Source: a phage. Taken from it: a stretch of DNA of 45,917 nucleotides. The position numbers were made by a program, and so were the translations under genes. The notes beneath the pieces are model-generated. The model ran no database searches, was not told where the DNA came from, and saw only the letters and a program-made list of their open reading frames with translations. The DNA lies in assembly GCA_014750165.1 (NCBI GenBank), contig GCA_014750165.1_4319.1. One strand, 5' to 3'. This document shows positions 1,651 to 7,968 of the stretch, in pieces; the first letter of the stretch is position 1, and each line of letters begins with the position of its first letter.

Positions 1651-2307
1651 ATGGCTCACTTATCAAACGGCACCCAGGTGTTCGTAGAAGGCTCTCGCGG
1701 AGCTGCAATTGACGTAACTGCAATTTCTAACGCAGCTACCCCTGTTTTAACTGTATCTGACGCAGCTAGTTTGGTTGTTGGTGATTACCTGCTTTTCACA
1801 TCTTCAGCTTCCACTCTACTGGCCGACAAGCAAGTACGAATTACTGAAGTTTCTGGCACTTCGGTAACGGTTGAAGGTATTGATACCTCCAGCACCACCA
1901 AGTTCCCAGCTGGTTTAACTGGTGAAGTTGTCAAGATTACTTCCTGGTTCGAAGTTCCGTGTGTTCAGGACGTTTCCACTGACGGCGGCGAACAGCAGTT
2001 CGTTAACTTCCAGTGCTTGTCCGATGACCGCGAACAGCAGATTCCGACTTATAAATCTGCGGTAACGAACACCTTTACCTTCGCTCATGAGTACACTAAC
2101 CCGGTTTATCCGGTTCTGCGTAACTACGATGAGTCTGGCCAGGTTGTTGCGATTCGACTGTTCGTACCTCGCGCTAGCGAAATGCGTTTGCAGTCCGGCA
2201 CTATCGCTTTCAACGACACCCCTACAATTGGTGTTAACGAAATCGAAACTGTATCCATCGCAGTATCCATTCGTGGTCGACTGTCCTCCGTGGCAGCGGA
2301 AGTTTAA
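1651..2307 (+). CDS. major tail protein
   Basis: 218 aa ORF with strong RBS (AAGGAAAAATACATG), followed by a strong rho-independent terminator; canonical position before chaperone/tape-measure genes. Confidence 0.6.
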   Translation: MAHLSNGTQVFVEGSRGAAIDVTAISNAATPVLTVSDAASLVVGDYLLFTSSASTLLADKQVRITEVSGTSVTVEGIDTSSTTKFPAGLTGEVVKITSWFEVPCVQDVSTDGGEQQFVNFQCLSDDREQQIPTYKSAVTNTFTFAHEYTNPVYPVLRNYDESGQVVAIRLFVPRASEMRLQSGTIAFNDTPTIGVNEIETVSIAVSIRGRLSSVAAEV

Positions 2308-2417: not shown

Positions 2418-2543
2418 ATGAAAGCAATCATCACAATTATGGCAGTGGCAGCGGCAACAACCCTTTCAATTACTTATGTTAAGTTTTGCATGTCAGTAGC
2501 TGAGAGCTACTCAATCTGGCAATTTGCAACTCATTGGCACTAA
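2418..2543 (+). CDS. small hydrophobic peptide (41 aa), hypothetical
   Basis: ATG 7 nt after GAGAGA; MKAIITIMAVAAATTLSITYVKFCMSVAESYSIWQFATHWH; below track size cutoff; own cassette upstream; approx coords. Confidence 0.3.
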   Translation: MKAIITIMAVAAATTLSITYVKFCMSVAESYSIWQFATHWH

Positions 2544-2586
2544 GTGTTAGAATACTGATTCACAAACAATAAGAGGATTAACTAAG

Positions 2587-2901
2587 ATGGCAAAATTCAA
2601 ACTTTCACTAGCAGCGCTTCCTGACTTTAAGCTGCCTGTAAAATTCAAGCTGGCTAACGACCAGGATGTAGAGGTTATCTTTACAGTCAAGCACAAGAAA
2701 ACCTCAGAGCTTCAGGAGTTACTTAATAAAGAAGGCCTAAGCACCAAAGAACTCATTATGGCAATTGCATCTGATTGGGATTTGGAGGAGGAATACAACG
2801 AAGACAACGTTAATGAGTTCTCAGACCTGTTCCCGTCTTCAACCGTTGCTCTTACCACTGCTTACATGCAGGCGCTCGCTGGTCAGAGAGTAAAAAACTA
2901 A
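2587..2901 (+). CDS. tail assembly chaperone (lambda G-like)
   Basis: 104 aa ORF immediately upstream of tape measure gene; ends at slippery heptamer. Confidence 0.6.
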   Translation: MAKFKLSLAALPDFKLPVKFKLANDQDVEVIFTVKHKKTSELQELLNKEGLSTKELIMAIASDWDLEEEYNEDNVNEFSDLFPSSTVALTTAYMQALAGQRVKN

Positions 2902-3221
2902 AACGAGCGGTGTATCTACAGTACCAGTCAGAGCCAACAGATGCCGAACTGGAAGCTATTGGGATGCGCCGCTCCGATTACGAAGATGAAGAGCCTGAAG
3001 TTTTACACTTCGACGAAAACATGATGAAGGCGTGGGACATTTACTGTTCAATGGCTACGCAATGGCGAGTCGGAGCTAACGGAGCTACAGGCCTAGATTA
3101 CAACGTGCTAAATTTCCTCTTTAGAGTGTATAATGTTTCTGAAGAAGAATTGGTACTCAGCGATTTACGCATCCTTGAAGCTAAGGCTCTTGAGATGATG
3201 GATAACCTGAGAAAAAAATAA
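2587..3221 (+). CDS. tail assembly chaperone G-T fusion by programmed -1 frameshift
   Basis: Second ORF (track 2910..3221) is in -1 frame relative to 2587..2901 and has no independent ATG; slippery site A AAA AAC at 2892..2898 immediately before the frame-0 stop. Confidence 0.55.
2892..2898 (+). promoter_or_regulatory. -1 ribosomal frameshift slippery heptamer A AAA AAC
   Basis: X XXY YYZ heptamer in frame with upstream ORF, followed by TAA; -1 reading continues into 2910..3221 frame. Confidence 0.55.
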
Positions 3222-3256
3222 CCCGCTTCGGCGGGTTTTCTATTATGGAGGCTTAG

Positions 3257-6241
3257 ATGGCAACAAATGAATTAGCCGGAATCACACTAGCCGTAGACGT
3301 CTCGCAAGTAGACAGGGGCACGCAATCCCTACAGAAGTTCAGGCAAGCTAACCAGCAAGCCGCTTCCGGCATTAGTGAATTCGTCAATGCTGAGCAGGTT
3401 GCTAAAAACCAGGCAAGAGACACAGCTCGCGCACTGGCTGAACAGCAAGCATCTTTAGCTAAATTGCAAACAGCTATCGACCCAACGGCTGCAAAGTTCC
3501 GCAAGCTGCAAGAGGCCGCAGTGGGTCTTGATAAGGCATTCGCGGCTGGCGTAGTTCCTGATGAGGAATTTTTCCGATTAGGCGAGGCGATTGAAACGCA
3601 GAACGCAAAACTTGCTCGCTCACGTGCAGCGCTAACTGAAGAGGGAAGAGCGGCTGCTCAGGCTGCAAAGGATAAGGCAAAAGCGAAGGCTGAAGCTGAT
3701 AGATTCATTGCATCACTTGAGCGTCAGGCTCAAGCAGCGACATTGACGCGAGAGGAGTACCTAAAGTTACAAGCGGCCCAGCTTGGAGTTAGTTCCCAGG
3801 CTGCACCAATCATTGACAGAATCGCCGACGCATCACAGAAGGCAAATACCCAGTTAATTGCTCAGAGTAAGGCTTTTCAGAAATCAGGATTAAGCGCCGG
3901 GCAATACAAGAATGCCATATCTCAACTACCAGCGCAGATTACTGATATTGGCACGTCGCTTGCTGGCGGAATTCCGATTTGGCTTATTGCAATTCAGCAG
4001 GGCGGGCAAATTAAGGATGCTTTTGGTGGTATTGGCAACACCTTTAGATTCGCGCTTGCGGCCTTAAATCCATTCAATGTTGCTGTTGGTGTTTTGGGTG
4101 GGGCTCTTGTGGCTCTTGGTGTTGGTGCGGCTCAGGCTGAAAGTGAATTCAGGGCGTTAAACTCCGCAATTGCGTTCTCAAACAACTCTACAATCGCATC
4201 AATCTCTCAGGTTAGAGAGTTGGTTAGCTCTGTTTCTGATGCAACGGGTGCCACCAGAGGACTTGTGACTAGCATCGCAACAAGCCTTACTGAGCAAGGG
4301 AACCTTACGCTGACGCAGATTGACAAGATTACTAAATCGACCGCAAGATGGGCGCAGTTGACAGGTAAGGATGCGAAGGAGATTACTGGTTACTATAACC
4401 AGATTGCGAGCGACCCAATACAGGGTTTAGTTGATTTGGATAAGCGCTTTAACTTCCTCACGCAGGGGCAGTTGACGACAATCGAAAACCTGAGAAAGAC
4501 AAAGGGAAAGGTTGAGGCTGTTACCGCCGCAATTGACATTTTCAGCAAGTCGCAGGAAGCCAACCTTAACGACATAGCGGCGCAGTTAACTCCGCTTGAG
4601 CTAGCCTGGAATGATTTCAGAAAGTACATCTCTGATATCTGGGATGCAATTAGTCGTAGAACGGTTGGGGCGCTAAACCTTTTTGTTGATGTAATCGCCG
4701 GAACGATTGAACAGATTAGGGTGTTCATTAACCAGGGCGACGTGCTGATTGGTGAGTTTGTAATCAGTGCAACGCAAGCGCTGCAAAACATCCCTGGTCT
4801 TGGCGATGCTGGAAATAATGTAATATCTGAGCAGCAGAAGATTATCGATGCTGCCAAGAGGCAAAACCTTGAGCTGGAAAAGTCCATCAGGGAGAGAGAT
4901 GCCAGAATCAGAGAGGGAGAACTTGGTTACGTTACTCGCAGGGAAAATCAGAATACCAATGAGCAATCAGGGACCGATGAGGAATTCGCAAAAAGGAAGA
5001 AGGCACTTCAGGATGAGCTTGACGCGATCAAGAAGAATAGGAAAGAGAAAAAAGGGAGGGTTAAGGAGCAAAGGGATTTAACAATTGGTTACGAATCTGG
5101 CGTGTTGGCACTTCAGGCCCAACTCAAGGTGCTTCAGGAAAACAGGGATGTTGGCGCAGTAATAAGCAATGAGCGCAATCAGTACCTTCAGGAAGAGGCT
5201 AAATTCAGGATTCTTGAGCAGAGGCAGCTTGATGGCTCGATTACCAAAGAGCAAGCAAGACTTCTCATTGAGAAGGATAAAGTACTAGAATTGGCAAGGC
5301 AGAAGGCTGAACTTGGCGACCAGATTGTTTTGCAGGAGCGAGCCAATAAGTTAGCTGAAGATAACCGTAAAAAGATCCTTCAGATTAACAATGAAGCAAG
5401 TAATATCGACTTGGGTGCTGGCCTGTCTTCTCGGGAGCAGCAGAGACTTAAAGAGATACAGGCACTCAAATCAAATCAGGAAAACGCTGGTGGATCTGTC
5501 AATGACGTTGATTTCCAGCAATTACTGGAAGCAAGAAAGGAATATTACAAGCAGGAGGATAATCTTAGATCAGACTGGCAATCCGGTGTAACATCCACTC
5601 TCGCCGACTTGACAGAGAAGTACACTGACTACAACCAGATTGCTAAGGACTTAACCGTTGCGGCATTTGACGGGATAACAGAGCAAATTACAAACCTTGT
5701 AACCACTGGTGAGACGAACTTTAGGGAGTTCACCGCAAGCATCCTCAAAATGATTGCGAAGATTGCAACTCAATTGCTTTTGGTTAAGGCTATTGAATCT
5801 ACAATCAAGAGCTTTGGTGGTGACACTGGTGCAGGTAGCGCTTTCGAGTCAATAAAATCAGCAATTGGTTTTGCTGGCGGTGGCTACACTGGTGATGGTG
5901 GGAAATATCAGCCAGCAGGAACCGTACACCGCGGTGAGTTTGTATTCACAAAAGAAGCGACAAGCCGAATTGGTGTTAAAAACCTATACGCACTGATGAA
6001 AGGTTATGCAAACGGCGGAGCGGTTGGTGGTCAATCTGGTTATGCTAATGGCGGCTTGGTTTCTAGTGGCTCAGATGTTAATGTTAGCGGCATCACTGTT
6101 AACGTAAACTCGGGTGTAGGTAGCGATCCGGAACAAGCTAAAGCATTGCAGAGTGGCGTTAAGGCAATAGTAGCGGAAGAGATTGCTCAGTCTTTCCAGC
6201 AAGGCGGCCGTGCTTATGCTTACCTTCGCGGATTCAACTAA
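3257..6241 (+). CDS. tail tape measure protein
   Basis: 994 aa, Ala/Gln-rich coiled-coil N-terminal two thirds, hydrophobic segment (GGIPIWLIAIQQGG...), Gly-rich C-terminus; position after G/GT. Confidence 0.85.
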   Translation: MATNELAGITLAVDVSQVDRGTQSLQKFRQANQQAASGISEFVNAEQVAKNQARDTARALAEQQASLAKLQTAIDPTAAKFRKLQEAAVGLDKAFAAGVVPDEEFFRLGEAIETQNAKLARSRAALTEEGRAAAQAAKDKAKAKAEADRFIASLERQAQAATLTREEYLKLQAAQLGVSSQAAPIIDRIADASQKANTQLIAQSKAFQKSGLSAGQYKNAISQLPAQITDIGTSLAGGIPIWLIAIQQGGQIKDAFGGIGNTFRFALAALNPFNVAVGVLGGALVALGVGAAQAESEFRALNSAIAFSNNSTIASISQVRELVSSVSDATGATRGLVTSIATSLTEQGNLTLTQIDKITKSTARWAQLTGKDAKEITGYYNQIASDPIQGLVDLDKRFNFLTQGQLTTIENLRKTKGKVEAVTAAIDIFSKSQEANLNDIAAQLTPLELAWNDFRKYISDIWDAISRRTVGALNLFVDVIAGTIEQIRVFINQGDVLIGEFVISATQALQNIPGLGDAGNNVISEQQKIIDAAKRQNLELEKSIRERDARIREGELGYVTRRENQNTNEQSGTDEEFAKRKKALQDELDAIKKNRKEKKGRVKEQRDLTIGYESGVLALQAQLKVLQENRDVGAVISNERNQYLQEEAKFRILEQRQLDGSITKEQARLLIEKDKVLELARQKAELGDQIVLQERANKLAEDNRKKILQINNEASNIDLGAGLSSREQQRLKEIQALKSNQENAGGSVNDVDFQQLLEARKEYYKQEDNLRSDWQSGVTSTLADLTEKYTDYNQIAKDLTVAAFDGITEQITNLVTTGETNFREFTASILKMIAKIATQLLLVKAIESTIKSFGGDTGAGSAFESIKSAIGFAGGGYTGDGGKYQPAGTVHRGEFVFTKEATSRIGVKNLYALMKGYANGGAVGGQSGYANGGLVSSGSDVNVSGITVNVNSGVGSDPEQAKALQSGVKAIVAEEIAQSFQQGGRAYAYLRGFN

Positions 6242-7416: not shown

Positions 7417-7430
7417 CACTTTTTGTTAAG
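7413..7430 (+). promoter_or_regulatory. gene-boundary palindrome cassette, variant copy
   Basis: ATAGCACTTTTTGTTAAG followed by GCGCA..TGCGC inverted repeat; precedes HNH gene. Confidence 0.4.
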
Positions 7431-7482
7431 AGGAAGGCGCAGGAATGCGCTATCCTCTAATCTCTTAAACTGGAGATTAAAA

Positions 7483-7968
7483 ATGAACTGGAATGAAATT
7501 TTCGAATACAGAGATGGCAAGATTTATTGGAAAGTTAGCCCTGGCAGGAGGGCTAAGGTTGGTTCGGAAGCTGGATCAAATCAAATAAAAGGGTATAGAT
7601 TTGTGAAATTTCACGGAGTTTTATATATGACACACAGGGTTATTTGGGAGATGCATAACTGTGAAATACCGCATGGAATGGAGGTTGACCATTTAAATCA
7701 CATTAGGGACGATAACAGGATAGAGAATTTAAGAGTTGTTACAAAGTCAATTAATCAGAGGAATGCATCTAAAAGAATTGATAATAAAAGCGGTTTTACA
7801 GGCGTTTCTTGGTATCCCAAATATTCAAAGTGGAATGCTTACGCGACAGTAAATTCCAAGAGGTTTAATCTTGGTTACTTTGAATCAAAGCAAGATGCCT
7901 ATGTGGCTGTTAAAAAATTTAGGTCCATAAATGATTTTCATAAAAACCATGGAGTTGATTTATGTTAA
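7483..7968 (+). CDS. HNH homing endonuclease
   Basis: MNWNEIFEYRDGKIYWK...; HNH core EVDHLNHIRDDNRIENLR; ATG 7483 after GGAGA; paralogous to 27993..28485 and 34044..34535. Confidence 0.8.
   Translation: MNWNEIFEYRDGKIYWKVSPGRRAKVGSEAGSNQIKGYRFVKFHGVLYMTHRVIWEMHNCEIPHGMEVDHLNHIRDDNRIENLRVVTKSINQRNASKRIDNKSGFTGVSWYPKYSKWNAYATVNSKRFNLGYFESKQDAYVAVKKFRSINDFHKNHGVDLC

Follow-up and report, generated by a model that had tools for sequence, protein, structure and literature searches.

The DNA analysed here, a stretch of 45,917 nt referred to below as the window, is from a T1/Rtp-like coliphage of the Drexlerviridae, of the Braunvirinae type. Relatives that include JeanPiccard, CEB_EC3a, ACG-M12 and OzMSK share about 91% nucleotide identity with it at the locus under study and about 88% over 25 kb. 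No database record is identical to the window, and MN840485.1 matches it at about 90% over 4.6 kb. On the + strand, a pair of overlapping ORFs, G and T (2587..3221), is situated between the gene for the major tail (tube) protein (1651..2307, +; Phage_tail_3, 4.9e-68; phrog_584, major tail protein, 3e-86) and the gene for the tape-measure protein (3257..6241, +; TMP_2, 7.3e-49; Tape_meas_lam_C, 2.9e-16; phrog_24, 7.4e-232), the presumed client of the G and GT proteins.

The surroundings of the pair showed several features of their own. Terminator-like hairpins with UUCG loops at 2313-2332, after the major tail gene, and at 3220-3237, in the gap between T and the tape-measure gene, bracket the chaperone cassette, and terminators are annotated at equivalent places in the records of T1 and CEB_EC3a. 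The second of them (3220..3237, +), found in a terminator scan, resembles an intrinsic terminator and follows the T stop. Both are possibly partial terminators that grade the expression of tube, chaperone and tape-measure proteins. Between the major tail gene and G lies a slot (window 2423-2537) that lacks homology to its counterparts in close relatives. In the window, it holds an ORF (2418..2543) for a hydrophobic peptide of 41 aa with the N-terminus MKAIITIMAVAAATT; in AugustePiccard, it holds an ORF for a lipoprotein-like polypeptide of 128 aa with a similar N-terminus (MKAIIAIMATLLLAGC); and in other relatives, unrelated ORFs of 82-88 aa with a signal or transmembrane segment are found. 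This slot looks like a variable, moron-like insertion site. Further downstream, an ORF among the tail genes (7423-7968) contains an HNH-like motif (EVDHLNHIRDDNRIENLRVV...NQRN) that was spotted by eye, and, judged in this way, the ORF resembles a homing endonuclease inserted between two genes of the tail.

The first ORF of the pair (G; 2587..2901, +) starts with ATG and encodes, under standard decoding, a G-like tail assembly (tape-measure) chaperone of 104 aa and 11.75 kDa. It is preceded by the Shine-Dalgarno (SD) sequence AGAGGA at 2572..2577 (+), with a duplex energy of -5.8 kcal/mol and a 9-nt spacing to the ATG at 2587. The protein matched the Pfam family Phage_TAC_4 (PF08748) with 115.1 bits, where the gathering score is 21.1 (E = 3e-33), and the match was full-length, with residues 1-104 on profile positions 1-124 of 124. 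It also matched phrog_569 and phrog_17368. The last codons of G are GTA (2890), AAA (2893), AAC (2896) and TAA (2899), which place the heptamer A AAA AAC at 2892..2898 (+) in the X XXY YYZ phase relative to the G frame, directly abutted by the 0-frame TAA stop at 2899..2901. This stop makes up the first 3 nt of a 6-nt spacer (2899..2904) that precedes a predicted stem-loop at 2905..2974 (+). The original prediction, made from the letters of this DNA, had the chaperone ORF ending with GTA AAA AAC TAA and a slippery A AAA AAC at 2892..2898, and both its coordinates and its sequence were exact. It had also described the -1 frame as continuing without a stop into the ORF 2910..3221, and translation agreed, as the -1 frame is free of stops from 2817 and terminates at 3219..3221. 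In the list of ORFs, 2910..3221 lies within this frame, and GTG at 2910 is the first possible start.

The T segment in the -1 frame (2898..3221, +) has 107 codons plus the stop. Residues 21-101 of the -1 frame product matched the Pfam family DUF1799 (PF08809) over profile positions 1-80 of 80, with 59.9 bits (gathering score, 26; E = 2.8e-16). Moreover, phrog_17368, with 213 profile positions, spans both halves of the pair, with G at positions 1-107 and T at positions 109-210 (1.2e-43 for T). One PHROG family thus covers G and T, and fused proteins are therefore already present in phage databases. Among the relatives of G and T, no solved structure was detectable by sequence.

By itself, A AAA AAC has no significance in the window. 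It occurs 15 times, compared to 13.6 +/- 3.3 expected, which is the chance level. Within the 82-nt overlap of G and T it is the only in-phase XXXYYYZ heptamer, and the chance of finding an in-phase heptamer anywhere in the 27-codon overlap is, by a rough estimate rather than a computation, about 10%. The heptamer is significant because its position, phase and frame are conserved in relatives, not because of the motif itself.

When the conceptual G-T fusion was used as a tblastn query against phage records, 1156 records matched, and 1051 of them covered at least 80% of the fusion in two pieces, i.e., in two frames. The comparative set consisted of 78 distinct IMG/VR loci, and a scan of metagenomes added only seven close relatives. 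In 77 of the 78 loci, the -1 frame is open for 103-106 codons beyond the G stop. In 54 of the 78, including T1, the site is A AAA AAC, and in all 54 a stop (TAA or TGA) abuts the heptamer. The identical A AAA AAC TAA is present in T1, TLS-like phages, Warwickvirus, Hanrivervirus, Dhillonvirus JLBYU37 and Pantoea phage MED16, and JLBYU37 and MED16 share the site and the -1 relation at just 29-30% protein identity. Across more than 1000 phage records, the T frame has 30-97% identity with variation dominated by third codon positions. The chance-level frequency of the heptamer would suit a reading with no recoding at all, by which G alone is functional and the -1 ORF is either open by chance or a gene in decay. 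This reading is effectively refuted by the significant Pfam domain encoded in the -1 frame and by the conservation of the T frame.

The alignment of the fused proteins is conserved across the junction, with the consensus ...ALAGQRVKN/LKRAVYL.YQ..PTD..L...G..R.DYE (the slash marks the junction). At the nucleotide level, column entropy upstream of the heptamer peaks at the third codon position of frame 0 (1.55 bits vs. 0.65 and 0.32), while downstream of the heptamer it peaks at the third position of the -1 frame (1.19 bits vs. 0.59 and 0.38). At the heptamer, codon periodicity hence changes frame. From the G stop to the GTG there are four codons, encoding L-K-R-A, and these vary only synonymously in the -1 frame (AAA/AAG, CGA/AGG/CGC and GCG/GCA). 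This stretch is, judging from the pattern of substitutions, under protein-level selection in the -1 frame, and its codons can be translated solely by ribosomes that arrive from G in that frame.

We noticed that these codons also bear on the question of whether T is a separate protein of 103 aa, the translation of which begins at GTG 2910 either independently or through termination-reinitiation, with the heptamer being incidental. The GTG is found in the window and in all Rtp-like relatives, two CDSs are annotated in most GenBank records, and the annotators of OzMSK noted an "independent RBS." A stop and a start that are as close as these, with the GTG 8 nt past the G stop, can support reinitiation. 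The SD:anti-SD duplex at GTG 2910, however, is only -2.2 kcal/mol at a 1-nt spacing, which is at the background level of the window (-2.45 +/- 2.5 kcal/mol), whereas the duplex of G is that given above and that of the tape-measure gene is -9.3 kcal/mol. The T ORF is thus without credible translation start signals of its own. The GTG and the bases upstream of it are also enclosed in the 5' arm of the predicted hairpin of -34 kcal/mol. Furthermore, an ATG, GTG or TTG within 11 nt past the G stop is found only in the seven Rtp-like loci of the 78. Other lineages have GTT, GTC or GTA at the same codon, and in the remaining loci the first candidate start lies 20-149 nt, mostly 50-149 nt, into the conserved T frame. 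Given that GTG alternates with GTT, GTC and GTA among lineages at this position, GTG 2910 is the conserved Val codon of RAVYL. The original prediction was right that the first start available to T is this GTG, and the comparison refines it in that the codon is conserved as Val and not as a start. The L-K-R-A codons before the GTG are kept by synonymous changes and would need a prior shift to be translated, which is also against a separate T. Altogether, we consider independent production of T to be quite improbable as the explanation of the pair, while there is some likelihood that low-level reinitiation at the GTG yields free T in the lineage of the window.

The exact slip motif is not universal, since two lineages lack the heptamer. 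In 18 of the 78 loci (Webervirus), G ends in GCA AAA GTT or GCC TAA, and in 5 of the 78 (the e4/1c group), it ends in GCA AAG GTC TAA. The heptamer-less lineages, to which loci L013-L017 and L038-L043 (e4/1c, phiKP26 group) and L021, L022 and L091-L108 (Webervirus) belong, keep the -1 architecture, which suggests a slip of a single tRNA-Lys on A AAG or A AAA. These relatives also help to weigh transcriptional slippage as the main source of the fusion, in which RNA polymerase would add one A in the A6 run at 2892..2897 to give the junction V-K-K-L. An insertion of one A would yield exactly the T frame, and homopolymer runs of A or T are known sites of transcriptional realignment (PMC5009743). 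The -1 architecture is kept, however, in the relatives with GCA AAG GTC and GCA AAA GTT, whose runs are of 3-4 A, and both the stop that abuts the heptamer and the hairpin 6 nt away from it belong to a ribosomal mechanism, not to a transcriptional one. Efficient transcriptional slippage requires runs longer than 6, which counts against the A6 run as well. We therefore regard transcriptional slippage as a very improbable main source.

Individual loci of the comparative set deserve mention. In Dhillonvirus JLBYU37 (L024, 751-763), a TGA in the -1 frame abuts the heptamer from the 5' side, as G TGA AAA AAC TAA, and leaves a slip window of 7 nt, so the shift in this phage is possible solely on the heptamer. 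An annotation rule could make use of this natural marking of the slip site. MN840485.1 (L002, Escherichia phage 2725-N35) has five A instead of six at 2910-2916 (GT-AAAAAC), a position orthologous to window 2892-2898. Its "tail assembly chaperone" is hence annotated as 117 aa that run into the wrong frame, and T is at +1, not -1, relative to G. A homopolymer sequencing error is the likeliest cause; if the run of five A were real, a different shift would be needed in that phage. In KR296690.1 (L023, Salmonella phage 36) and in L064, the G/T region is split into short ORFs or lacks the -1 extension, which probably reflects assembly or indel errors, not biology.

We conclude, with a probability of roughly 0.9, that the G/GT pair of this Drexlerviridae coliphage is expressed by programmed -1 ribosomal frameshifting. 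The suggestion of the original prediction that the locus follows the conserved G/G-T mechanism is borne out by the gene order, the -1 frame relation, the heptamer, the conserved fused alignment and the joined CDS annotated in OzMSK. Under the proposed mechanism, most ribosomes would translate 2587..2901 and halt at the TAA, releasing the 104-aa G-like chaperone, and a minority would slip back by one base on A AAA AAC at 2892..2898. In a tandem slip, the pairing of tRNA-Lys would pass from one AAA to another, and that of tRNA-Asn would change from AAC to AAA. The slipped ribosomes would bypass the stop, and decoding would resume at CUA (2898), followed by AAA CGA GCG GUG..., in the -1 frame up to 3221. 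The outcome would be a 211-aa G-T fusion of 24.3 kDa, the C-terminal half of which is the DUF1799 domain. By analogy with lambda gpG/gpGT, the G part of the fusion would bind the tape-measure protein, while the T part would recruit the major tail protein. The slip probably takes place while the ribosome is stalled by two features, the abutting stop codon and the 70-nt hairpin that starts 6 nt downstream, and the hairpin may make up for the relative weakness of the heptamer A AAA AAC in E. coli. The fusion product and the amount in which it is made, stimulation by the hairpin and the stop, and the chaperone functions are inferred from the sequence, and in the searched literature no protein or reporter data on this frameshift were found for any member of the Drexlerviridae.

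The predicted junction distinguishes the possible routes to the fusion. A tandem slip would give ...GQRVKN/LKRAVYL..., whereas a slip in the P site only would give VKK/LKR. Residue 104 would be Asn with the tandem slip and Lys with either the P-site-only slip or the transcriptional insertion of one A. The G-T junction is rich in K and R, and the peptide that spans it is MQALAGQRVKNLKRAVY.

A structure that could stimulate the shift was looked for downstream of the heptamer, and a stable hairpin was predicted at 2905..2974, 6 nt after it. The hairpin is 70 nt long, with a lower stem in which 2905-2917 pairs with 2962-2974, and its minimum free energy of -34 kcal/mol was matched by none of 200 dinucleotide shuffles (z = -4.88). 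Compared to all 7638 windows of 92 nt along the + strand of the entire stretch, it ranked in the top 0.12%. It was also more stable than expected for the peptide that it encodes: synonymous recodings of the same 31 codons had a mean of -19 +/- 3.9 kcal/mol (z = -3.8), and only 1-2 of 2000 recodings were as stable. With the stem starting at 2905, the 6-nt spacer falls within the range of 5-9 nt that is used for structures of -1 programmed ribosomal frameshifting (PRF).

Relatives differ in what they have at this place. Rtp-like relatives have the same fold as the window. In T1, TLS-like phages and Klebsiella K50 phages, a shorter hairpin, GGCGGUUU...AAACCGCC, is predicted at the same offset, and it is more stable than synonymous recodings in all three, with z of -3.2, -3.4 and -5.0, respectively. 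The significance of the hairpin was marginal in Webervirus, Warwickvirus and MED16, and the hairpin of Dhillonvirus was not significant. Most other heptamer-bearing lineages have a different hairpin at the same offset. The peptide that the e4/1c group and L012 encode there is nearly that of the window, yet no downstream hairpin was found in them. Across lineages, RNAalifold gave a consensus structure without any pairs, so the hairpins are lineage-specific. Covariation within the window's hairpin was uninformative because the stem hardly varies: none of 26 pairs was changed on both sides, and 21 of the 26 never vary. A search of 2700..3300 against Rfam found nothing near the gathering score, the best hit having E = 0.17 and lying outside the hairpin.

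Suppression of synonymous changes in the hairpin was considered as a further line of evidence and was rejected. With 9 sequences, 4 of 23 sites in the hairpin varied synonymously, compared to 98 of 183 elsewhere (p = 0.0015), but the difference was gone when 19 sequences were used and the rest of T served as the control (8/23 vs. 34/82, p = 0.64). The first apparent suppression is attributed to the greater variability of G compared to T. The hairpin and the rest of T have synonymous diversities of 0.114 and 0.143, respectively, which does not mark the hairpin as depleted.

On the strength of its predicted stability and offset, it is plausible that the hairpin at 2905..2974 is a stimulator of the frameshift. 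A more specific proposal is that the stimulator is real and lineage-specific, that it has been built anew several times on a 5' arm that stays fixed, and that its presence trades off against the strength of the slip site. The 5' arm is fixed as the R-A-V codons (GGCGG or GAGCGG), while its 3' partners differ, being AAACCGCC in T1 and TLS-like phages and GCGCCGCUC, about 55 nt away, in Rtp-like phages. The lineages with A AAA AAC, a weak heptamer in E. coli, mostly have a hairpin, and the e4/1c group, which would have switched to the intrinsically shifty A AAG, has none. We put this proposal forward only tentatively and consider it somewhat doubtful. If it were true, the Drexlerviridae would be a natural series for the tuning of the G:GT ratio. 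The predicted hairpin, which sister lineages have replaced or lost, provides a modest, testable handle on frameshift efficiency and hence on the stoichiometry of the chaperones.

The G/GT frameshift of this group is already known, and it is annotated in the close relative OzMSK (PQ659294.1), where the orthologous site carries a two-piece joined CDS described as [quoted passage not shown] Frameshifting was also mentioned for the T1-like phages Skenny and Solomon in genome announcements (PMC6763657, PMC8407766). Most other GenBank records of the group show two separate "hypothetical" or "tape measure" ORFs, with the second starting from GTG or an internal ATG; T1 gp39 is an example of a second ORF that has been shortened to an internal ATG. 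What is added here is the correct joined-CDS annotation for a new genome of the group and a strong predicted downstream hairpin. The proper annotation of the locus is a chaperone of 104 aa and a fusion of 211 aa, join(2587..2898, 2898..3221). The practical value of the result is therefore in annotation; biologically, the site is one more instance of the conserved G/GT system, and it opens no new question.

Among known systems, the closest to the window are its orthologs in the Drexlerviridae, which include T1 gp40/gp39, Rtp rtp35/rtp36 and the joined CDS CPTvBecoSOzMSK_031 of OzMSK. They have the same A AAA AAC TAA, frame relation and junction peptide, at 47-98% protein identity. There is no difference in kind, and the T1 and TLS-like phages differ in having the shorter hairpin instead of the 70-nt one.

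The -1 frameshift that produces gpG and gpGT has been described for phage lambda (Levin 1993; Xu, Hendrix and Duda 2004, 2013, as summarised in PMC5009743), and conservation of G-T frameshifting is widespread among long-tailed phages (review by Atkins et al. 2016, PMC5009743). The window resembles lambda in that two overlapping ORFs lie between the major tail and tape-measure genes, the -1 frame holds the second of them, a heptamer is found close to the end of the first, the products are a short protein and a C-terminally extended fusion, and the G part carries the annotation of a tail assembly chaperone. Their slip sites differ, as the lambda slip sequence is G GGA AAG, whereas the A AAA AAC of the window abuts the stop. 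A strong downstream hairpin is predicted in the window, while frameshifting in lambda has been reported to need no such hairpin. Their protein families also differ, with Phage_TAC_4 and DUF1799 in the window vs. Phage_TAC_2 and Phage_tail_T in lambda. When searched against Phage_TAC_2 and Phage_tail_T, G and T of the window gave no match at E up to 1, and in hhalign comparisons of the window proteins with those of lambda the probability was 0.1% for G; for T it was 1.4%, based on a motif of 15 columns (GLDYNVL vs. GLTYTVL). By sequence comparison, the pair of the window is thus analogous to lambda G/GT in position and mechanism and falls outside the sequence families of lambda.

The dnaX signal of E. 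coli consists of A AAA AAG, an upstream SD-like element and a downstream stem-loop. Like dnaX, the window has an A-rich Lys heptamer, read by the single tRNA-Lys of E. coli, and a stable predicted stem-loop about 6 nt downstream. A dnaX-type SD-like element was not found within the 22 nt 5' of the heptamer, as the best duplex there was -3.1 kcal/mol (-3.2 in T1), a background value. The shift extends the protein in the window, whereas it truncates the protein in dnaX. The heptamers differ in their last base, as that of the window ends in C, which places tRNA-Asn in the A site. In E. coli, tRNA-Asn is much less shift-prone (PMC5009743). Given this weakness of A AAA AAC in E. coli, a stimulator such as the predicted hairpin would be useful at the site of the window.
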